Virus record (IMG/VR): IMGVR_UViG_2695420456_000026
Reading direction: 5' to 3' (one strand)
DNA length: 7,631 bases
DNA from: a virus
Taxonomy: Duplodnaviria; Heunggongvirae; Uroviricota; Caudoviricetes
The position numbers were made by a program, and so were the translations under genes. Of the stretch, positions 1 through 7,631 are shown piece after piece. Below the pieces are notes generated by a model. The model worked only from the letters and a program-made list of their open reading frames with translations. It did no database searches and was not told the origin of the DNA. The stretch's first letter is position 1. Every line of letters starts with the position of its first letter.

Positions 1-513
1 CTATGTCCTTGACGTCATAGCCGACTGGCCGATAAACCGGGTCGGCGAACTGCTCCCCTGGCGCGTAGCACTGCCGACTGAATAACACATCCCCGTCAAT
101 ACGGTTCTTGCTGCACGCTTACTTTTCTTCACGGTACAGATGCGGCGCATGGTGGATTCATCCGTCAGCATTCGCATGATTTCGGTGTTCAGTTCGGGGA
201 TAACGGTATAACCACCATCAGCGGGAACGCCTGTACTCAATGCGCGGGTTTCACCTGTCAGAATGTAGTGACGTAGTTCGGCGGGGTCAGTGGTCTGGCT
301 GTTTTTGCCTGGTTTACTGCGCTCTTCGTCAGCAACGGCCTCAAGGCGGGAGATGTCTTTATCGAGGGATTCAGCTTTAGCGCGTAATTCGTCAAATTTT
401 GCGCCCTCAGCATCGTTAAGGCTGCGGTTTTCTTTTTCCGCGTTCTCCAGCATGTCGCGCATCTGATTTTTAATGGCGGTTTTCTGCTGGCGTAATTCGA
501 TTATTCTCGGCAT
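1..513 (-). CDS. Capsid-like protein, about 170 aa. Residues 1-130 resemble the N-terminal part of HK97-family major capsid proteins (coiled-coil region followed by a ...LSTGVPADGGYTVIPELNTEIMRMLTDESTMRRI... block). The C-terminal 40 aa do not look capsid-like; possibly truncated or frameshifted.
   Basis: ATG at 513 (MPRIIELRQQ...) with AGGA about 8 nt upstream; the track ORF starts further up at a GTG (561). Stop TAG at 3..1. Family resemblance is from memory of HK97-type capsid N-termini, not a search. Confidence 0.45.
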   Translation of the reverse strand: MPRIIELRQQKTAIKNQMRDMLENAEKENRSLNDAEGAKFDELRAKAESLDKDISRLEAVADEERSKPGKNSQTTDPAELRHYILTGETRALSTGVPADGGYTVIPELNTEIMRMLTDESTMRRICTVKKSKRAARTVLTGMCYSVGSATRQGSSSPTRFIGQSAMTSRT

Positions 514-543
514 AAAAAAAGTCCTGAAGTTAAGTAAGGAACT

Positions 544-669
544 CCAGGACGCGGCAAACACTCAACCGTTTTTCATAAGGAAATCAGCAATCGCACCGAT
601 CGTTTTCCCGCCTGGTAATGAATATTGGCGGGCACATTAACAGGCGGGAAAGTGGCCCCAGCGTCCTGG
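544..669. promoter_or_regulatory. Nested inverted repeats in the intergenic region upstream of the capsid-like gene: CCAGGACGC (544-552) / GCGTCCTGG (661-669) enclosing TTTCCCGCCTG (604-614) / CAGGCGGGAAA (641-651).
   Basis: Repeats read directly from the sequence; function unknown (operator, structured leader or packaging-related site). Confidence 0.3.
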
Positions 670-769
670 CACCACGGGCGAGAATAATCATGATTCAGTT
701 CGGGTAAAATATGCCGATCCGGTCAGCGAACAACGTGGAACAACCACGAACAAATAATTTACAAAACAT

Positions 770-794
770 GACAAAAAGCCGGATTGCTCCGGCT
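770..794 (-). terminator. Rho-independent terminator for the leftward operon: hairpin AGCCGGA-TTGC-TCCGGCT followed on the minus strand by TTTTTGT.
   Basis: 7-bp GC-rich stem at 777-794; the T-run on the transcribed (minus) strand is the complement of 770-776; sits 7 bp downstream of the stop codon at 801. Confidence 0.6.
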
Positions 795-800
795 GTGTGA

Positions 801-1073
801 TTATCTGTCCTGGTAATTTCGCCATATTTCATCACCAGCACCATCCATACCCATTTCGGCATAAGTGCGATCGACCGCCTTTTTCAGGTCTCCGTAATTA
901 TCCGGCGGCTCCGGTGGCCTCTGTGCCTTCCTGGAACATTCCAGCCGTCGCATCGTGATGTGATGCCGTTCCTTGTCTGTCTCCACCAGTTGCATGACTT
1001 CACCCCATCGCGCCGACGCTCTCCGGTAAAAGCCTTTCGCCTCCAGTTCTTCCGCTATGCGGTCATGTACCAT
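801..1073 (-). CDS. Small regulator-like protein, 90 aa, possibly PerC-family (motif ...AEELEAKGFYRRASARWGEVM...RRLEC...).
   Basis: ATG at 1073 preceded by GGGGTGGGGA; the track ORF starts at a GTG (1082). Stop TAA 803..801. The PerC resemblance is a recollection of the KGLWRRAA-type motif and is unverified. Confidence 0.45.
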   Translation of the reverse strand: MVHDRIAEELEAKGFYRRASARWGEVMQLVETDKERHHITMRRLECSRKAQRPPEPPDNYGDLKKAVDRTYAEMGMDGAGDEIWRNYQDR

Positions 1074-1085
1074 CGTCCCCACCCC

Positions 1086-1496
1086 TCAGAACGGAATATC
1101 ATCACCGTAAGGGTCATCGCCTCCCGCTGGTGGCTGATTACCCTGTGTGCCTGTGGTCTTGCGTCGGCTCCCACCAGGACGTGCCGCACGGGCACTGATT
1201 ACGCTGTCTGCAATAACCTGATAACCCTGCCGCGTTTCCCCGTTCTGTCCGGTCCACTGGCTGACCTGCATCGTGCCGGATACGCTGGCAACGTCGCCTT
1301 TTTGATGTTTAGCCAGGAAGTCGGCCTGCTTACCAAATGCGATGACCGATAGCCATAACGTCGCCTGTCCATCCTGTGCCTGGCTGCATGGCAGCGATAC
1401 CGCCATACGCGCCAGCGTCATCGGTGTACCCTTGCTGGTCTGTTTTACCTGCGGGTCGTCCACCAGCCGCCCGTAAGCTGCAATTTGTGCTGTCAT
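1086..1496 (-). CDS. ssb: Single-stranded DNA-binding protein (SSB), 136 aa, OB-fold with acidic C-terminal tail ending DDIPF.
   Basis: C-terminus ...GGDDPYGDDIPF is the hallmark SSB tail; Gly/Pro/Gln-rich linker before it; SD GAGGTGG 4 nt upstream of the ATG at 1496. Confidence 0.85.
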   Translation of the reverse strand: MTAQIAAYGRLVDDPQVKQTSKGTPMTLARMAVSLPCSQAQDGQATLWLSVIAFGKQADFLAKHQKGDVASVSGTMQVSQWTGQNGETRQGYQVIADSVISARAARPGGSRRKTTGTQGNQPPAGGDDPYGDDIPF

Positions 1497-1505
1497 ATTG
1501 CCACC

Positions 1506-1811
1506 TCAGTGAAGCGATCCGGCGTTGTTCTTTTTCATCTCTTCCATCATTTTTTCAGTGAGCATTACGCACTGAAAACCCATGTTTTTGATGTCTACGG
1601 GCTTCATGCCTTTATCAGTGGATATCACAGGCAGAATATCCTGATACACATCGCGGTCAGGGTAACTAAGCACACAAAGCGCCCATGATGCCACGGGTGA
1701 GGATCCTTCGTCTGTTTCAACCCACCAGCCTGGTGTAGCTGCGCTTATTTGCTGAATCGTGATCCGTCCGTTGTGCTTGTAAAGTTTTTCACCAAATTTT
1801 GGTTCGCTCAT
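1506..1811 (-). CDS. Hypothetical protein, 101 aa (MSEPKFGEKLYKHNGRITIQQ...).
   Basis: ATG at 1811 overlaps the upstream stop (ATGA overlap at 1808-1811); SD GGAGAG about 9 nt upstream; ends 9 nt before the ssb start. Confidence 0.55.
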   Translation of the reverse strand: MSEPKFGEKLYKHNGRITIQQISAATPGWWVETDEGSSPVASWALCVLSYPDRDVYQDILPVISTDKGMKPVDIKNMGFQCVMLTEKMMEEMKKNNAGSLH

Positions 1812-2059
1812 GATTCCAACTCTCCGGTTTTAACGTTGATGGTTGTTACCTGTTCCGCTTCGGCAATCTCCCGTTCTGTCAGCGTGGCAAAGTTTGCCGC
1901 CGCCGTGGTCATGAATGCGCTTATCAGGTCGGGATGTTCCTTCGCGTATCCTTCCCGCGTGTGGCGGTCTATCGTTCTGATTGCCACCTTTAAGGTGTGC
2001 TCAGTCATGTCTAACGCTTTATATTTTGGCTCTGTTCTGTCTCTGCGTTTTTGGGTCAT
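1808..2059 (-). CDS. Hypothetical protein, about 83 aa (MTQKRRDRTEPKYKALDMTEHTLKV...).
   Basis: Preferred start is the ATG at 2059 with GAGAGG upstream; the track start at 2089 lies inside the iteron array. Stop TGA 1810..1808 overlaps the next start. Confidence 0.5.
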   Translation of the reverse strand: MTQKRRDRTEPKYKALDMTEHTLKVAIRTIDRHTREGYAKEHPDLISAFMTTAAANFATLTEREIAEAEQVTTINVKTGELES

Positions 2060-2068
2060 TTCTCGCAA

Positions 2069-2261
2069 CCTCTCACTTTTTCGCCTCACTTTTTCAAGCG
2101 TCTCACTTCGTCGCAGTTGGGATTTTCGGTTTTTCTATGTGTGTGTTTCATAAGTATTTTTTTACCCCTCACTTTTGAGGATGTATACAGGTCGAAAAGT
2201 GAGGGGGAGCGGGCTAATTTTGGCCCTCTTTCTATCCCCCTCGCTTTTGCTCCTCACTTTT
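2069..2261. repeat. Candidate replication origin: at least six direct copies of the iteron (C)CTCACTTTT (cores at about 2072, 2085, 2102, 2168, 2253, plus variant CTCGCTTTT at 2240), one inverted copy (AAAAGTGAGGGG at 2195-2206), and an AT-rich stretch (2120-2164).
   Basis: Repeats read directly from the sequence; CCCCTCACTTTT (2165-2176) and its inverted copy form a 12-bp inverted repeat with an 18-bp spacer; array begins at the stop codon of the helicase gene. Confidence 0.65.
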
Positions 2262-3660
2262 ATAGCGGCGCTACATCATCCCCATCGATACGAATAACCC
2301 CATCTTTTTCCAGCTTGTACAGCCAGCGCCGGAAGTTTTTCATTTCATACCCCAGCTTTTTCATGTCATCACGTAACATCTGGATCGTGCACTTGTCGCC
2401 GTTCTGTGTGCGTGAACGGATGCACCCCCATAGCGCGGTATGGTTTTCCGTCTTGTTCCCTGCCTCCTCGATGCGCTCCAGTTCAACAGGAGGGCGCGGA
2501 TCATCCACCACCACCAGCGACGTGATTAATTCACCGTCAGCGTCGGTAAAAAGCTCCACCACGCGTAAGTCATATGCGGCTTCTTTGAGTTCCTCCGCGT
2601 CCTTCATTTTGGTGCATGAGATAACCAGCGCTTCGCTTCCTGCGTCCTCCCTGCGTATCCGGTATTCAGCATCCAGCGAAGCACGAAATGCACTGGAACC
2701 GCGCGCGCCTTTCGTCTCATCCTTGCCGGAATGGTGAACCACCAGCACCGTGGCCCCTGTGCGTCGTTTCAGTTCGTCACAACCACGGATAAACGCCCCC
2801 ATATCACGGGAATCATTTTCATCATTCCCACCAAAGCAACGCGCCAGCGTATCCAGAATAATCATGCGTACAGGTTTACCCGTTTCCCGCTCCACCTGAC
2901 GGGCAGCGATAACCATTTCATCAACATCAAGCGGGGCAGCCGGAAAGATGGGGCGGTTTACCAGATACAGATTTTTCACCTGCTCATCGTGCACAACCTC
3001 CCAGGCTTTTACACGACGCGGAACACCTATACCGCCTTCACCAACCACATAGAGAACCGCACCATGTGCAACCCTGCGGCCTCCCCACTGGCGACCAGTG
3101 GCAACATGGCACGCCCACGATCCGGCAAGGAATGATTTATAGGACCCGCTAGCCCCGTATATGCTGCATAGCGATACCGCCGGAATAATCCCCTTAACCA
3201 CGTAATCCAGTTGCGTGTCGTATCCGGTAGATCCAACGCTCATCGGTAGCGTGGTTTTTCGCTGGTGGTTTTTTTCTTCCGCCGGCTCTTTCCCGCGCAC
3301 CCGTTCCAGGTATTCGCGCCAGTTCTCCCGCATATGGCTGTGCATCCCTTCGGGGTAATAATTCGCATCAGTTACGCCCGCCGCCGCCAGCTTGTGCGCA
3401 ATGGCATTAATATTTGATGGCCTGATGTGGCCTGCCTTGTACAGCCGGACACAATAGCGCCCCTCGTCGATGATTCTCAGGTCTGCCAGTTCATCCAGTT
3501 GATCATCAGCCAGCACAATGGGAGGCACATTATCGCCAGCCAGTCGCCCGTCCTGTTCCTGCCACTGTTTCGCATGTGCCCACGCATCACTACCCGCAAA
3601 AATGATGACTTCGGTCATCTTGTCGTAAGGCTGTTTTTTTAAGTTCGGTGCGCTTTTCAT
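2260..3660 (-). CDS. Replication protein, 466 aa: RepA-like / RecA-fold helicase (AAA_25-type) C-terminal domain with an N-terminal domain of uncertain identity (possibly Toprim-like).
   Basis: P-loop-like YGASGSYKS, VLYVVGEGG, Walker-B-like MIILDTLARCF, and LVVHHSGKDETKGARGSSAFRASLD in the same order as in RSF1010 RepA-type helicases; ATG at 3660 overlaps the upstream stop (ATGA). Confidence 0.8.
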   Translation of the reverse strand: MKSAPNLKKQPYDKMTEVIIFAGSDAWAHAKQWQEQDGRLAGDNVPPIVLADDQLDELADLRIIDEGRYCVRLYKAGHIRPSNINAIAHKLAAAGVTDANYYPEGMHSHMRENWREYLERVRGKEPAEEKNHQRKTTLPMSVGSTGYDTQLDYVVKGIIPAVSLCSIYGASGSYKSFLAGSWACHVATGRQWGGRRVAHGAVLYVVGEGGIGVPRRVKAWEVVHDEQVKNLYLVNRPIFPAAPLDVDEMVIAARQVERETGKPVRMIILDTLARCFGGNDENDSRDMGAFIRGCDELKRRTGATVLVVHHSGKDETKGARGSSAFRASLDAEYRIRREDAGSEALVISCTKMKDAEELKEAAYDLRVVELFTDADGELITSLVVVDDPRPPVELERIEEAGNKTENHTALWGCIRSRTQNGDKCTIQMLRDDMKKLGYEMKNFRRWLYKLEKDGVIRIDGDDVAPL

Positions 3661-3956
3661 TTCTTGCCCCTGAATCCGTTAACCATGGTTTTCAGCTTCT
3701 GGATGTTTGCCCGTGCCCTGGCGTTGCTGGTGGGCACGTTATGCGGCGCGGTCTGTACCAGAGAAAAATCACGCCGGAACTGATAAACAGGCATCACGCA
3801 ATCATATTCGTAACCTTCACGGCGGTAGGTTACGCGCCGTTCTTCCACGCCCTTAATCATTACCGTGCCGCCGTACTGGTCGCGGTAAATATCACCGCGC
3901 GTAAATTTAGGGTGAGTGTTGCCACTGGCAGTTAAGCCAGAATATTTAAGTTTCAT
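3657..3956 (-). CDS. Hypothetical protein, 99 aa, basic C-terminus (MKLKYSGLTASGNTHPKFTRGDIYRDQYGG...).
   Basis: ATG at 3956 with SD GGAGA about 9 nt upstream; stop overlaps the helicase start codon. Confidence 0.6.
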   Translation of the reverse strand: MKLKYSGLTASGNTHPKFTRGDIYRDQYGGTVMIKGVEERRVTYRREGYEYDCVMPVYQFRRDFSLVQTAPHNVPTSNARARANIQKLKTMVNGFRGKK

Positions 3957-3961
3957 TATTT

Positions 3962-4195
3962 TTATTCTCCGGTGTGCTGTTCTTTATATCTGTCGTGCAA
4001 TAGATCTATTTCTTGCAGTTCCATTATTACAGGCTCAAGAAGCGTTATTAATGCCGTGGCAATTCTTGATTTTTGTTTGTCGCGTTCATTGTCGCCAAGT
4101 GTTTCAAGCCATATGCGCAATATTTCCAGCATGTTTTCACTGTGAGAAAGTGCAAGAAATGCGCGGTCTATTGTTTGGTGGTAAATATCACGCAT
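3962..4195 (-). CDS. Hypothetical protein, 77 aa, predicted helical (MRDIYHQTIDRAFLALSHSENMLEILRIW...).
   Basis: ATG at 4195 with SD GAGGATG upstream; start overlaps the stop of the upstream gene by 8 nt (ATGCGTGA). Confidence 0.55.
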   Translation of the reverse strand: MRDIYHQTIDRAFLALSHSENMLEILRIWLETLGDNERDKQKSRIATALITLLEPVIMELQEIDLLHDRYKEQHTGE

Positions 4196-4652
4196 GGCTT
4201 ACATCCTCAGGAAATTTTCTTCTATAACGCGCCTCTGCCACATATTCCGCATAATCGGCGGCGATATTCAGTACATCAAGCCCCGTTGATTTATATTCTC
4301 TCGTGGAAAGTAAGAAAAAAGCCGCTCTAATAAGTTCTGGCATTGACGAAAGCGCATCAGCCGCATCATCAGGAACGCCGGAAAATTCCTGTTTCAGGGA
4401 ATTAAAACGATCATCACGCATAACCCCCCCATTTTCACAATCAGCAATCAGGATAGCTTTGGCCTCATTCAGCGCCGTATCAGCACTAAATTGCATGACA
4501 GCCAGTGAGTGAGGAACGAAAGCACCGGCATATTCTGTTTCGCTGGTGGCGTGCTTATGTGCCCTGTCCGCGATAACAGAAATATCAATCAGCGCGTGCA
4601 TCAGCGTTTTGATGGCTTCGGCGGCTGCGTCCGGTGTGGTTTTATTGTGCAT
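4188..4652 (-). CDS. Hypothetical protein, 154 aa (MHNKTTPDAAAEAIKTLMHALIDISVIADRAHKH...).
   Basis: ATG at 4652 with SD GGGGA 7 nt upstream; 11-nt overlap with the preceding gene (ATGCACAATAA). Confidence 0.6.
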   Translation of the reverse strand: MHNKTTPDAAAEAIKTLMHALIDISVIADRAHKHATSETEYAGAFVPHSLAVMQFSADTALNEAKAILIADCENGGVMRDDRFNSLKQEFSGVPDDAADALSSMPELIRAAFFLLSTREYKSTGLDVLNIAADYAEYVAEARYRRKFPEDVSHA

Positions 4653-4854
4653 AAAGCATCCCCTGAATATTCGTGTTAATCATTCCGGCACGTTTTGTGA
4701 TTTCCTGTAATGATTCCCTTGTGGCGACAATTGCTTCATCTGGTAAGTGGTAATTACACACCACGCGACCTTTATCCACATTGACCAGTAGCTGCCCTGT
4801 GAATTTCTCACGAAACTGAATGCGGTTAAGGTCAGTAAGTGACAGATTAATCAT
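4642..4854 (-). CDS. Hypothetical protein, about 70 aa (MINLSLTDLNRIQFREKFTGQLLVNVDKGRVVCNYHLPDEAIV...).
   Basis: Preferred start is the ATG at 4854 with SD GGAGG 6 nt upstream; the longer track start at 4896 has no such support. Confidence 0.55.
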   Translation of the reverse strand: MINLSLTDLNRIQFREKFTGQLLVNVDKGRVVCNYHLPDEAIVATRESLQEITKRAGMINTNIQGMLYAQ

Positions 4855-5044
4855 GGCGCACCTCCTGACGAATACGGGCGGCAAATACAGCAACACAACC
4901 GGACGGGCAACGGTTACGCGCTTCGCGTTCCGTCCAGGCGGTTACGTGGATGATTTGAGATTCTCCGGCACTCAGTGCCAGAAAACGCCACACAAAGGCC
5001 GTTTGTGTGTGTACAAGGTGTGGTATATGATTTACGGCAACCAT
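4847..5044 (-). CDS. Small Cys/His-containing protein, 65 aa (MVAVNHIPHLVHTQTAFVWRF...RNRCPSGCVAVFAARIRQEVRHD); candidate first gene of the operon.
   Basis: It is the 3' end of the 314-aa track ORF, but only this part has a strong SD (AGGAG, 5-nt spacer) before an ATG (5044); stop TAA overlaps the next start by 8 nt (ATGATTAA). Confidence 0.45.
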   Translation of the reverse strand: MVAVNHIPHLVHTQTAFVWRFLALSAGESQIIHVTAWTEREARNRCPSGCVAVFAARIRQEVRHD

Positions 5045-5106
5045 AACGGCTCCTAGTTTACGTTGTTGGTTAGACGCCCCGTATGTGTTCCCAGCACTGC
5101 GGGGCG

Positions 5107-5177
5107 TTGATTTTTGTGTAATGGCAAGTACAATGGTAATTACCATGTAGGTATAGCAATAAAGGGTAATTACCATG
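5107..5177 (+). promoter_or_regulatory. Candidate sigma70 promoter (TTGATT 5107-5112, 16-bp spacer, TACAAT 5129-5134) with two operator-like copies of the perfect palindrome GGTAATTACC (5135-5144 and 5165-5174; shared 12-mer GGTAATTACCAT).
   Basis: Palindromes are 30 bp centre-to-centre; the first overlaps the -10/start region, the second ends at the RHH start codon. The divergent operon must also initiate in this 5045-5175 interval. Confidence 0.55.
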
Positions 5178-5348
5178 TCAACACCATTAGAAAAACGTTC
5201 GCCTCCATACCAAATGCGATTACCGGAAGACTTCAGAGCGCAGCTAGAAGAAGCAGCTAAGGCCGATGGCGACACATCTTTAGCCACTTGGATTAAACGC
5301 GTTCTCCGCAAAGAATTACAGCAACGCGGCATAGAACCCAAAGGATAA
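5175..5348 (+). CDS. Arc/MetJ-type ribbon-helix-helix DNA-binding protein, 57 aa (MSTPLEKRSPPYQMRLPEDFRAQLEEAAKADGDTSLATWIKRVLRKELQQRGIEPKG).
   Basis: Absent from the ORF track (under 60 aa); read by hand. The xRLPxEL...A...G.S.N..I pattern is typical of the Arc family; the palindromic operators overlap its own promoter and start. Confidence 0.7.
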   Translation: MSTPLEKRSPPYQMRLPEDFRAQLEEAAKADGDTSLATWIKRVLRKELQQRGIEPKG

Positions 5349-5405
5349 AAACTATCAGCGCCGTGGTGTGAGGTATTACGGCGCATTGCTATGCAGGACA
5401 ACACA

Positions 5406-5579
5406 ATGACCGATAAAGAATTGACCAAAACATTATCACCGGCACGGAAAAGACGGCGCAGAAAGATAGAGCATGAATCAGAAAGATTCGCGCCATGTGC
5501 TTTTGCCCTTGAGCAATTCCTTAAAGAGTACAGGGAAACGCGCCCATTGCAGGTATGGCAACGAACTGAACCAGACTGA
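5406..5579 (+). CDS. Possible small basic protein, 57 aa (MTDKELTKTLSPARKRRRRKIEHESERFAPCAFALEQFLKEYRETRPLQVWQRTEPD).
   Basis: ATG at 5406 with AGGA about 8 nt upstream (track ORF starts at the in-frame ATG 5391); lies between the RHH gene and the terminator on the same strand. No family recognised. Confidence 0.35.
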   Translation: MTDKELTKTLSPARKRRRRKIEHESERFAPCAFALEQFLKEYRETRPLQVWQRTEPD

Positions 5580-5673
5580 TAGCATTGCCCACCAGCCTGA
5601 TAGCGGCTATCATCCCCGTGCTTATGTTTGGGATCATATACACATAAGGCGCAGCGGGTTATCTGTTCAGAAA

Positions 5674-5702
5674 GGCGGCTCCATTTCGGGGCCGCTTTTT
5701 TT
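5674..5702 (+). terminator. Rho-independent terminator: GGCGGCTCC-ATTTC-GGGGCCGC followed by seven T.
   Basis: 8-bp GC-rich stem (one G-U pair), 5-nt loop, T-run 5696-5702; closes the plus-strand RHH cassette. Weaker in the opposite direction (only TTT). Confidence 0.75.
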
Positions 5703-5848
5703 ATGCCTGAAAAACCCCAATTTTGTGGTTTTCCAGTCTCACCAGGGCGAACGAATCCCCGCCCACGTTCTGGCGTATATTCAATCTTCATGGTTATAGC
5801 TCTGTGTTCAGATGATTGATGTGTGGCGGCTGTGTGCCGCCAGCGTGA

Positions 5849-6037
5849 TTAATGAACTGCCTTGCAGCTATCCTTCCAGGCCAGAACCTCGGATAAAAAC
5901 CAGCCAACGGAACGACCGCCAAGTTTACGACGTGATGGGAATTGTCCGGCCTTTTCCAGGCGGTAGCGACACGTACGGCTAAGGCCGGTTAGTTTTTCGC
6001 ATTCTTTTTCACGTATAAACCGATCAGTGCTTAACAC
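5849..6037 (-). CDS. alpA: AlpA-family phage regulatory protein (MerR-like HTH; Xis/Vis-like), 62 aa.
   Basis: ...ECEKLTGLSRTCRYRLEKAGQFPSRRKLGGRSVGWFLSEVLAW is the typical AlpA HTH block; GTG start at 6037 with AGGGGG 5 nt upstream; located just downstream of int. Confidence 0.85.
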   Translation of the reverse strand: MLSTDRFIREKECEKLTGLSRTCRYRLEKAGQFPSRRKLGGRSVGWFLSEVLAWKDSCKAVH

Positions 6038-6309
6038 TATTGCCCCCTTTCGTTTCTTAAAGAGTCATCAGGTGTCTTATTGTGTCGTATTGTTCCCGCT
6101 AGAGTGATGAATGGCAAATACTGAGGATGTATGATTTACAGAAAATGAAAAAGTAAGAATAAAATCTTTTAAATTCATGTTAATACAAAGGCATAAAATA
6201 TTGTTCCATGCCTTTTTTCTCGCTCTTTAAAGAGTGATTCGCTAGTGTATAAAAAACCAGTAACACATTAAAAATCAGCTACTTATAAATCCGTACGCTT
6301 TTTCGCCTC

Positions 6310-6362
6310 TTGTTCGTAGTTGTTCCACATTGTTGCTCATTGTTGCACGTTGTATCTGTTCG
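6310..6362. repeat. Five to six phased 10-bp tandem repeats, TTGTT(C/G)C-like (TTGTTCGTAG, TTGTTCCACA, TTGTTGCTCA, TTGTTGCACG, TTGTATCTGTTCG), between the int 3' end and alpA.
   Basis: Exact 10-bp periodicity read from the sequence; phasing places every copy on one face of the helix, which suggests a protein-binding array. Confidence 0.5.
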
Positions 6363-6368
6363 CATATC

Positions 6369-6384
6369 CAGTATGCGCATACTG
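6369..6384. promoter_or_regulatory. Perfect 16-bp palindrome CAGTATGCGCATACTG, 18 bp downstream of the int stop codon.
   Basis: Self-complementary over all 16 positions; no T-run follows on either strand, so more likely a dimer binding site than a terminator. Confidence 0.4.
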
Positions 6385-6401
6385 AAAAAACACGAAAAAA
6401 A

Positions 6402-7631
6402 TTATTTTCTTCTGGCTACTGGTAGCGTGGTTACGTTTTCATGTGTTCCCGCCAGTATCCCTAACCGCTCCGTCCACATATCCAGCGCATTGCGTTTCGC
6501 ATCCAGATAACGGGAATGATTATAAACTCGCTGCATTCCTGGCATCTGGTGGCCTGTAAGCTGCTCCACGACATGCGGATCAACGCCTAAATCGTTCAGC
6601 ATGGTTGTAAAGGTGCGCCGGATGTCATGCAGTGACCAGTGAGGGTGATTAAGCCTCCTGTGCGCTAATCTTCCATACTGCGATACGCTGGCCTCCTGTT
6701 TCACTTCCCCCAGCAATAAGCCCGTGTGCCTGTTCTGCTCCACCAGCTGCGTGATGAACGGCAGTATTGCTTCCGGTATAGGCCGGAATATGGCTACCTT
6801 CGTTTTGCTGTGCTCCTTCGGAACGGTCCAGAGCATTTCGGTAAAATCCCACTCGCTGATCTCCGATAACCTCAGTTCTACCGTCCGGCATCCGAACACA
6901 ATCAGGAGGCGGATTAACGCGATGTAGTAGGGGGAGAATATTTTTTTGTCCAGTGCCTGCAATAATTCGCCCAGTTCTTTGGTGCTTAAGACACGCTCGC
7001 TTATATCCGGTTTTTTCCCAACGTCCGCCACACTCATATCATCAAGAACGTTGCTGATTGCATAGCGCCGCCTCCGGCAGAACTTAAGCGCCTGTTTGCA
7101 CGTCTGTAGCAAGAATCCGGCAGTAACAGGCGTTCGCTTTGCCACCTGGTCAAAACAGGCCAGCCAGTGCCGTAGCTCGCATTTATCCAGCGGCATAGCA
7201 CCAATGTGCTGTATTACGTGATTATTAAGGCGCTTTTTCAGGGCGGCATAATCCACGCGGTTTTCCTTTGCGTACGACTCAAGCCAGTAGGTGAGCGCAT
7301 CGCCAACCGTTACCGGCTTTAACGCTTCCTGTACGGTGTAATTAAGCTCATGACGTGGATTTTTCCCCTCTGCCAGCCATGCGCGACACTGGGCGGCTTT
7401 TTCCCTGGCTGATTTCAGGCTCAGATCAGGATAATTTCCCAGCTTAATGCGTTCCGGTGGTGCCCCCCTTCCCGTTCCGGCCCTGTAAGTGAAATACCAG
7501 GTTAAAAGGCCACTGGTTGAATGCCTGACGCTCAGGTTTCCACCGTCATTAAGAAAGGCTGTTTTTTGGGCGGGTGTGCCGTTGATTTTCCTCAGCTGTG
7601 TATCGCTCAGTTTGTTAAGTGCTCTGCTCAT
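6402..7631 (-). CDS. int: Tyrosine recombinase, P4-family phage integrase with N-terminal arm-binding domain, 409 aa.
   Basis: N-terminal ...GNLSVRHSTSGLLTWYFTYR... arm-binding block; catalytic-domain residues in ...HDIRRTF... and ...VYNHSRYLD... (candidate Tyr). ATG is the last three bases of the window, so the true start or att site may lie beyond it. Confidence 0.9.
   Translation of the reverse strand: MSRALNKLSDTQLRKINGTPAQKTAFLNDGGNLSVRHSTSGLLTWYFTYRAGTGRGAPPERIKLGNYPDLSLKSAREKAAQCRAWLAEGKNPRHELNYTVQEALKPVTVGDALTYWLESYAKENRVDYAALKKRLNNHVIQHIGAMPLDKCELRHWLACFDQVAKRTPVTAGFLLQTCKQALKFCRRRRYAISNVLDDMSVADVGKKPDISERVLSTKELGELLQALDKKIFSPYYIALIRLLIVFGCRTVELRLSEISEWDFTEMLWTVPKEHSKTKVAIFRPIPEAILPFITQLVEQNRHTGLLLGEVKQEASVSQYGRLAHRRLNHPHWSLHDIRRTFTTMLNDLGVDPHVVEQLTGHQMPGMQRVYNHSRYLDAKRNALDMWTERLGILAGTHENVTTLPVARRK

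Follow-up and report, generated by a model that had tools for sequence, protein, structure and literature searches.

A RepA-type sibling of the satellite EcCIEDL933 at the phoQ/roxA site of Escherichia coli: the probable left half of a capsid-forming island whose capsid gene is cut by an IS66-family element

The 7,631 nucleotides (nt) of the IMG/VR virus record IMGVR_UViG_2695420456_000026, referred to throughout as the window (the whole stretch of DNA that was analysed), very probably represent the left half of a capsid-forming phage-inducible chromosomal island (cf-PICI) residing at the phoQ/roxA site of Escherichia coli, that is, the half that encodes integration, regulation and replication. 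We hold with high confidence that this island is a mosaic sibling of EcCIEDL933, that it carries a RepA-type replication cassette, and that its capsid gene was cut after codon 130 by an ISEc22-like insertion sequence (IS) of the IS66 family.

An earlier note on the same DNA had described the whole window as a compact satellite-like island, either a PICI or a P4-like element, that could not be assigned to any named family. Its gene calls (a P4-type integrase, AlpA, a RepA-like helicase, a single-stranded DNA-binding protein (SSB) and a PerC-like protein) were all confirmed by profile searches, and the satellite reading was right in its PICI form: intact relatives carry the gene set of a cf-PICI between attachment (att) repeats. 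The window is about half of a 14.8-kb element, however, and not an island in itself, its first 122 positions are the end of an IS, and a family can be named, as the island has the roxA/phoQ site, the int gene and the alpA gene of EcCIEDL933.

Source locus, island boundaries and the interrupted capsid gene

The home of the window is the E. coli contig CYCZ01000062.1 (assembly GCA_001283765.1), where it adjoins roxA and pepT at the roxA/phoQ site. This contig terminates 6 nt past window position 1, inside the IS66-family element, where, as is typical of a repeated IS, the assembly broke off. Of 5426 complete E. coli genomes, 296 contain 80% or more of the window, and the copies in FORC_042 and JNE132847, at 95-98% identity, have the same genes placed between phoQ and roxA. 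Leftward of the capsid start, both of these genomes continue with a complete packaging module that encodes a capsid protein of 385 amino acids (aa), a prohead protease, a portal, a head closure protein, a head-tail connector and an HNH protein, followed by a small open reading frame (ORF), the small terminase subunit TerS (P27 type), the large subunit TerL and one further small ORF. Tail and lysis genes are absent between the att repeats of EcCIEDL933 and of two relatives (loci L001 and L002), and profile searches of the window's proteins with Pfam, PHROGs and NCBIfam bore out the earlier statement that the window has no tail, lysis or terminase genes. In gene set, in size and in having neither tail nor lysis genes these islands agree with what has been published as the criteria for cf-PICIs (PMC10085698; 10.1101/2025.02.11.637232), and the 14.8 kb of L001 falls within the size of ~10-18 kb between att repeats. 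The same observations bear on the earlier suggestion that terminase genes in the flanking DNA would expose a full-size prophage. Such genes do not discriminate, because a cf-PICI is defined by just this combination of a capsid, protease, portal, TerS and TerL with neither a tail nor a lysis module, and the intact relatives have both terminase subunits in exactly that setting.

When measured against the empty site of K-12, the intact insert of L001 is bounded by an exact 10-nt direct repeat, AAATATGTCC, and the delimiting repeats whose absence the earlier note would have taken as a refutation were thereby found. This att core overlaps the phoQ stop codon, and the attB sequence of K-12 reads AAATATGCCC. 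The attR of the source contig, the only att site which that contig shows, is identical to attR of the relatives, from which attL is known. Its core begins 172 nt beyond window position 7631, on the side where the earlier note had looked for it, although not at the 3' end of a tRNA or tmRNA gene as supposed there; a tRNA-type att site was rejected because the search for tRNA and tmRNA genes came back empty for the window, the source contig and L001. The two att arms also carry a doubled ACTACACC motif, ~84 and 129 nt from the att core (L001 8105-8125 and 22657-22677), the right-arm copy of which lies outside the window, ~27-47 nt beyond 7631. A doubled att motif has been reported for this clade of integrases, and the ACTACACC doublet matches it (PMC10111431).

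Positions 1-122 (plus strand) form the right end of the ISEc22-like element; E. coli has thousands of ISEc22 copies that match them at 95-99% identity. On an annotated ISEc22 copy, window 1-85 corresponds to the 3' end of the tnpC transposase gene and 86-122 to the terminal inverted repeat, which ends ...CTGCACGCTTAC; the reverse complement of 111-122 is GTAAGCGTGCAG, and the terminal repeat of IS66 begins GTAAGCG. The IS was called from this one end, the only one within the window. Similarity to the capsid genes of related cf-PICIs begins exactly at position 123, and by frame arithmetic the capsid gene (123-513, minus strand) is cut after codon 130 plus one base. The ORF called at this place, of 170 or 186 aa, is thus a fusion in which 130 capsid residues are followed by 40 from the antisense strand of the IS. 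What the earlier note had called a gene like a capsid N-terminus is indeed one, and can be specified as the beginning of a truncated HK97-type major capsid gene: it matches the major head protein family phrog_10 over residues 1-130 (E 4.4e-23) and is 99.9% identical in nt sequence to intact 385-aa capsid genes. These 130 codons are all that the source window retains of the packaging module, and intact relatives that are 99.9% identical across the perC-capsid junction carry the module in full. The junction between IS and capsid gene occurs in no complete E. coli genome, and an exact search of the GTDB species representatives was also empty. The insertion appears to be private to the source strain or lineage, and the element is probably an immobile copy of a described family.

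Place of the island among satellites and its rivals

EcCIEDL933, the prototype cf-PICI of the O157:H7 strain EDL933 (NZ_CP008957.1, ~1,680,100-1,695,000), occupies the same roxA/phoQ site and shares with the window, in the same gene order, the integrase, AlpA, the Icd-like protein, the DUF4222 protein, an 83-aa protein, SSB, PerC and the start of the capsid gene. At the level of DNA the two islands are mosaics of each other. From the left, window 123-1507 (capsid start, PerC and SSB) is 93-96% identical to EcCIEDL933; 1508-1807, with a 101-aa gene, has no counterpart there; 1808-2061, with the 83-aa gene, is 92.5% identical; 2062-3305, which holds the iterons and most of the helicase, has no similarity; 3306-3971, a single block made of the first ~120 replicase codons and the DUF4222 gene, is 77% identical; 3972-4846, with three small genes, again has none; and 4847-7631, from the Icd-like gene to int, is 93.8% identical. 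The first 122 aa of the two replicases are 66% identical, but the proteins are otherwise unrelated: EcCIEDL933 has a 710-aa protein with DUF927 and HTH_56 domains and the window a 466-aa protein of the AAA_25, RepA type with different iterons. The three small genes upstream in EcCIEDL933 are replaced in the window by three others, and the window has the 101-aa gene in addition, lacks a 74-aa gene that lies between perC and the capsid gene of EcCIEDL933, carries a different allele of a ribbon-helix-helix (RHH) gene and its operators, and has its capsid gene broken by the IS. PerC, SSB and alternative alleles of the Pri-Rep type belong to the usual content of PICIs (PMC6092414, PMC11773190, PMC10111431). 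Induction by a helper phage through alpA, and transfer in small capsids of the island's own making that are fitted with helper tails, have been shown for EcCIEDL933 only (10.1101/2022.09.08.507074; 10.1101/2025.02.11.637232); mutation of its packaging genes abolished transfer in every case except gene 1792, for which transfer was severely reduced, and left replication intact in all of them (10.1101/2022.09.08.507074).

The left half of such islands is not diagnostic of the family to which they belong, because in E. coli O145:H28 the same half (window 773-7631, at 99.2% identity) is joined to a classical late module. That island, in strain RM12581 (locus L089), is an 11-kb classical PICI at the same site, with a lambda-type capsid homologue, a decoration protein and TerS, and without a portal, protease, connectors or TerL; the left parts of PICIs and cf-PICIs have been described as potentially identical (PMC10085698), and the four-zone layout of classical PICIs of the EcCICFT073 type (Integration, dynamic, Replication and Late) applies to the window as well (PMC10111431). 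One could accordingly take the window for a classical, non-capsid-forming Gram-negative PICI that remodels and uses the capsids of its helper. What makes this improbable is the left edge of the window, where the O145 type diverges left of 773 and where positions 123-800 comprise a cf-type junction and an HK97-type capsid start that are 99.9% identical to those of cf-PICIs with a portal, protease and TerL. SatelliteFinder forbids a portal, a head-tail connector or adaptor and TerL in a classical PICI (PMC10085698); these are absent from the window, but the junction at 123-800 is of the cf type, the intact copies of which carry them. Matches of the cf type and of the classical type overlap at 773-800, at the hairpin that follows perC (777-794), and this is the junction of the late module. 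In an O157:H7 strain the cf packaging half, together with PerC, SSB and two small genes, is 98.7% identical over window 123-2061 and is joined to another integrase, at another site, and to a DUF927 replicase. The interchangeability of PICI modules was noted earlier (PMC10085698, PMC10111431), and the window is one combination from a pool of such modules.

Two further readings are, in our judgement, less probable still than a classical PICI. The P4-type integrase with its arm-binding domain, the regulator of the AlpA/Vis family and the Icd-like gene would all suit a P4-like satellite, yet no protein of the window matched families annotated as Sid, Psu, Delta, Epsilon or alpha primase in Pfam, PHROGs or NCBIfam; Rfam, searched with the whole window at E<=1, returned only a chance snoRNA match and no C4, IsrK or CI RNA; and the late genes of the relatives are of the HK97 type and not P2-directed, so that a P4-like satellite is very unlikely and the P4-like half of the earlier note's alternative was abandoned. 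Equally improbable is the remnant of a full-size prophage after loss of its tail and lysis genes. The capsid and terminase genes of the relatives are phage-like and an IS insertion is typical of decaying prophages, but in several lineages the intact copies span the same 14.8 kb, are bounded by the same att repeats and have no genes for tail or lysis, the matches to the window recur in the 296 complete E. coli genomes already mentioned, Megablast of the window against 50,697 phage records gave zero matches, and published phylogenies place the capsid and TerL of cf-PICIs on long branches apart from those of phages (10.1101/2022.09.08.507074).

The assignment to the cf-PICIs stands on a short part of the window, and several points weigh against it or against parts of it. 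Only positions 123-800 decide the family, which the left half alone does not. The packaging module is unseen in the source genome, as the contig stops inside the IS, and the rest of the source island may be present, deleted or rearranged. Lastly, the steps ascribed below to AlpA sites and to an RHH repressor rest on patterns in the sequence.

The replicase, its origin and the neighbouring genes

All supported genes of the window but one lie on the minus strand, and profile searches and gene order place the integrase, the AlpA-type regulator and the replication module in the same direction at one end of the island. The replicase (466 aa, 2260-3660, minus strand; AAA_25, PF13481, E 2.4e-43) is made up of a Toprim-like N-terminal domain (residues ~1-125), a RepA/DnaB-like helicase domain of the AAA_25 type (148-315) and a C-terminal 150 aa without assignment. 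More than 2400 relatives bear the name "helicase RepA family protein", and the resemblance to RSF1010 RepA (structure 1g8y), with which the protein shares a motor of the RecA-fold hexameric-helicase type, is remote (E 0.005). The N-terminal domain, which is Toprim-like according to a structure model, lacks the catalytic Glu, and there is no recognisable active primase domain; it is probably a non-catalytic domain that travels with the adjacent DUF4222 gene (3657-3956, minus strand; PF13973, E 1.6e-24), the stop of which overlaps the replicase start.

A predicted replication origin occupies 2072-2259, directly after the repA stop. The heptamer AAGTGAG (extended in places by a further G) occurs six times in the window, always within this interval, where 0.56 copies would be expected for the whole window and none of 200 shuffles reached six copies; the earlier claim of a replication module followed by iterons was therefore sound. 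Five copies are direct and one is inverted, and they form two sets around a stretch of 65-75% A+T at 2120-2159. The same layout has been described for the origins of E. coli PICIs, and that of a replicase gene placed directly before an origin of iterons around an A+T-rich stretch for the pri-rep-ori modules of the Staphylococcus aureus pathogenicity island (SaPI) type (PMC6092414). The window's replicase differs from a SaPI-type pri-rep in having the Toprim-like domain in place of a recognisable active primase.

The comparison was extended to 80 loci with RepA relatives from other species (L007-L086), of which ~70 could be tested in the 300 nt after the repA stop. Most of these had a heptamer at 4-10 copies in that interval, and a minority only 2-3 copies or no related motif. 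Across many genera of Enterobacterales the heptamer tracks the RepA lineage: it is AAGTGAGG in the window and in Xenorhabdus, AGTGCGGCA in cf-PICIs of Citrobacter, Leclercia, Kosakonia, Phytobacter, Enterobacter, Kluyvera and Rosenbergiella, and AAGTGGGG(G)A in Pantoea, Serratia, Pectobacterium, Morganella and Yersinia. There is thus good comparative support, at the level of sequence, for the view that a replicase and its cognate origin form one unit. Seven of the fetched loci, from seven other genera, hold a full cf packaging module at 38-83% protein identity, and the RepA-type cf-PICI is for this reason a widespread arrangement.

The remaining genes of the window fill the intervals between these modules. 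PerC (90 aa, 801-1073; PF06069, E 2.7e-43), SSB (1086-1496; PF00436, E 4.2e-17), the 101-aa protein (1506-1811; phrog_27268, E 1e-69) and the 83-aa protein (1808-2059; phrog_1231, E 7.5e-53), the last two without known function, lie between the capsid gene and the origin on the minus strand. Upstream of the DUF4222 gene follow, likewise on the minus strand, three small genes of unknown function and of 77, 154 and 70 aa (3962-4854; phrog_2196, phrog_2512 and phrog_340), an Icd-like gene of 65 aa (4847-5044; NF033153, E 8.9e-17), alpA (5849-6037) and the gene for the P4-type tyrosine integrase (409 aa, 6402-7631; Arm-DNA-bind_3, E 5e-18, and Phage_integrase, E 1.5e-16). PADLOC, run on ten window proteins (the unknown small genes, DUF4222, the replicase, PerC, the RHH protein and a 62-aa ORF), gave no match to a defence system.

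Regulatory sites, proposed cycle and significance

AlpA (62 aa; PF05930, E 6.7e-17) matches the AlpA-family protein of PDB entry 8c3t (E 4.9e-6). In relatives of the island AlpA is required for induction, excision and transfer; helper phages induce alpA, and its product activates itself and other island genes and is needed for replication too (PMC6092414; 10.1101/2022.09.08.507074). The motif AACAA-N5-AACAA has seven matches, at four places, in the 37.6-kb FORC_042 locus, all within the island, against 0.19 expected. Two repeat sites in the att arms are found ~90-135 nt inside each att junction (L001 8143-8157 and 22705-22719). In the gap between int and alpA, four to five TTGTT units at a 10-bp phase occupy 6310-6353 (plus strand), and 23 of 27 bases match, in opposite orientation, those of 727-753 (minus strand), where three TTGTTC units at the same phase follow a TTTGTAAAT box upstream of the capsid/packaging operon. 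The box and three phased units are kept at the same place in cf-PICIs of other genera; the units are TTGTTC-like in two of the three cf-PICIs with an AlpA at least 65% identical, degenerate in the third, and replaced by other motifs where AlpA is distant or absent. The classical PICI of RM12581, which has the window's left half in common, is without a triple TTGTTC site in front of its late genes. From these patterns we infer that the phased repeats at the att arms, before alpA and before the capsid operon are AlpA sites. PerC is an unlikely regulator of the late operon, as cf-PICIs of other genera keep the phased repeats without PerC.

Cox of P2 and Vis of P4, both small regulators with a winged helix, use repeated boxes to act on att sites as well as on promoters, and the island resembles these systems in having phased repeats at both att arms and at the fronts of two operons. 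A different model is offered by AlpA of Pseudomonas, an antiterminator that, once loaded at a promoter element, carries on through terminators (PMC7969949). The island has terminator-like hairpins that would suit it: one after perC (777-794, minus strand) and another, followed by T7, directly before the capsid ATG (521-550, minus strand), both from a consensus scan, and a hairpin followed by T7 that was noticed by eye downstream of alpA (5674-5703, plus strand) and is not in the scan list. On the strand opposite alpA and 146 nt past its stop codon, this last hairpin is a putative terminator of the plus-strand unit described below. The Pseudomonas element, GGGACG-N5-GGTA, is unlike the island's TTGTTC at 10-bp phase, and binding and antitermination by the window's AlpA are putative. 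As cf-PICIs of other genera do not preserve the hairpin ahead of the capsid start in the form of a terminator, the antiterminator model was kept as no more than a low-confidence idea.

In the source assembly, the region from alpA to the Icd-like gene has a called minus-strand ORF of 314 aa (4847-5791), and relatives in RefSeq are annotated over the same stretch with ORFs of 247 or 286 aa or with a pseudogene. Its family support is limited to the last 65 codons: the Icd-like profile NF033153 matches only residues 266-309, and it is a 65-aa gene that is annotated in relatives. Minus-strand translations of the region are rich in Cys, Ser and Arg and diverge freely, and an RHH frame on the opposite strand is better conserved across genera, for which reason the N-terminal 250 codons were rejected as a shadow ORF; the 314-aa "gene" is largely an artefact of annotation. 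The RHH ORF itself (57 aa, 5175-5348, plus strand) was neither called in the source assembly nor annotated in four RefSeq relatives with the same alpA/int type. Its profile matches are weak (YlcI_YnfO_N, E 0.0014; Arc, E 0.038), and its structure model, with an extended N-terminus and two helices, finds mostly ribbon-helix-helix proteins, all at E>1 and none significant at this length; PDB sequences, when searched with a profile made from the RHH alignment, gave mostly designed helical repeats, an uninformative result. The frame is, on the other hand, kept at 40-82% identity in islands of other genera, in which the antisense frame scores lower or nil, and the protein is found in 93 clusters across the gamma-proteobacteria. 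Farther along the same frame, a 62-aa ORF (5391-5579, plus strand) of uncertain coding status is conserved only in patches (FALE-FLK) in one other allele and is missing from the Pasteurella element Pmp8.

The RHH ORF is preceded by a promoter-like site (TTGATT-16-TACAAT, 5107-5134), and the stretch 5107-5176 (plus strand) also holds two GGTAATTACC dyads, O1 at the -10 position and O2 over the RHH start codon. Each of nine RHH alleles has its own pair of dyads or repeats at these same two positions, and operator and beta-strand residues co-vary over the nine. Three alleles with the strand YQMRL, those of the window, of a metagenome-assembled genome from the Enterobacterales and of the 15.3-kb Pasteurella cf-PICI "phage Pmp8", share an operator of the GGTAATTACC type, with variants of one to two bases in one of each pair. 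The Pmp8 record (OR544139.1, "Pasteurella phage Pmp8") was deposited as a phage and has the gene set of a cf-PICI, with a "tail terminator" ORF as its sole tail-related item and no lysis genes annotated; its RHH protein is 79% identical to that of the window, and it has one exact GGTAATTACC dyad and one two-base variant. We conclude that the RHH ORF encodes a real protein, which is predicted to be DNA-binding and autoregulated, and which would add a layer of repression between alpA and the operon of the Icd-like and replication genes. We found no description of this gene in the PICI literature that was consulted, in which it was left open whether Gram-negative PICIs have a repressor (PMC6092414).

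Adjoining the first operator, at 5073-5112, there is a conserved hairpin of 13 pairs with a T-run after it in most alleles, a candidate terminator for the plus strand. Over ten alleles, 7 of the 13 pairs have compensatory changes, and G-U pairs occur only in plus-strand RNA. The hairpin may be the terminator of a short RNA that runs antisense to the beginning of the Icd-like gene and its ribosome-binding site; the promoter of this RNA can only be guessed at from the sequence. A wider proposal, to which we give only tentative credence, is that the zone between alpA and the Icd-like gene is an unannotated switch of the immunity type, composed of the RHH protein with its co-varying operators (in at least nine alleles) and of the adjacent hairpin, which might end an antisense RNA.

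The cycle that we propose for this cf-PICI takes its experimental parts from the literature on relatives and not from the window's copy. By analogy with them, a helper lambdoid phage would switch on alpA, and AlpA would then boost its own expression, activate island genes and, together with the P4-type integrase, drive excision at AAATATGTCC. The replicase would bind the AAGTGAG iterons directly downstream of its gene and open the A+T-rich spacer, and the circle would be replicated with the island's own SSB. In intact copies, the operon from capsid to TerL (capsid, protease, portal, connectors, HNH, TerS and TerL) would build small T=4 capsids, which are expected, again by analogy, to package the island and take helper tails. 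The window's copy has probably kept excision and replication and would form no particles on its own because of its broken capsid gene.

These findings file an island that looked unclassified under a described family of satellites, in a copy that has been disabled by an IS. They also provide an example of how such islands are built from modules, in that one half with int, alpA and RepA is found, at one and the same site, in a classical PICI as well as in a cf-PICI, and one cf packaging half occurs with two different replicases, with points of exchange behind the perC terminator and within the replicase gene, past the shared Toprim-like domain. The iterons matched to their lineage, the AlpA-type boxes and the alleles of the RHH protein with their operators could bear on the silencing and induction of Gram-negative PICIs. 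Should the RHH protein repress the island's early genes and those for replication, it would fill the place of the global repressor left open for these islands (PMC6092414), and together with the phased AlpA-type boxes it would, if this is true, make up a testable circuit for the switching of satellites by their helper phages.

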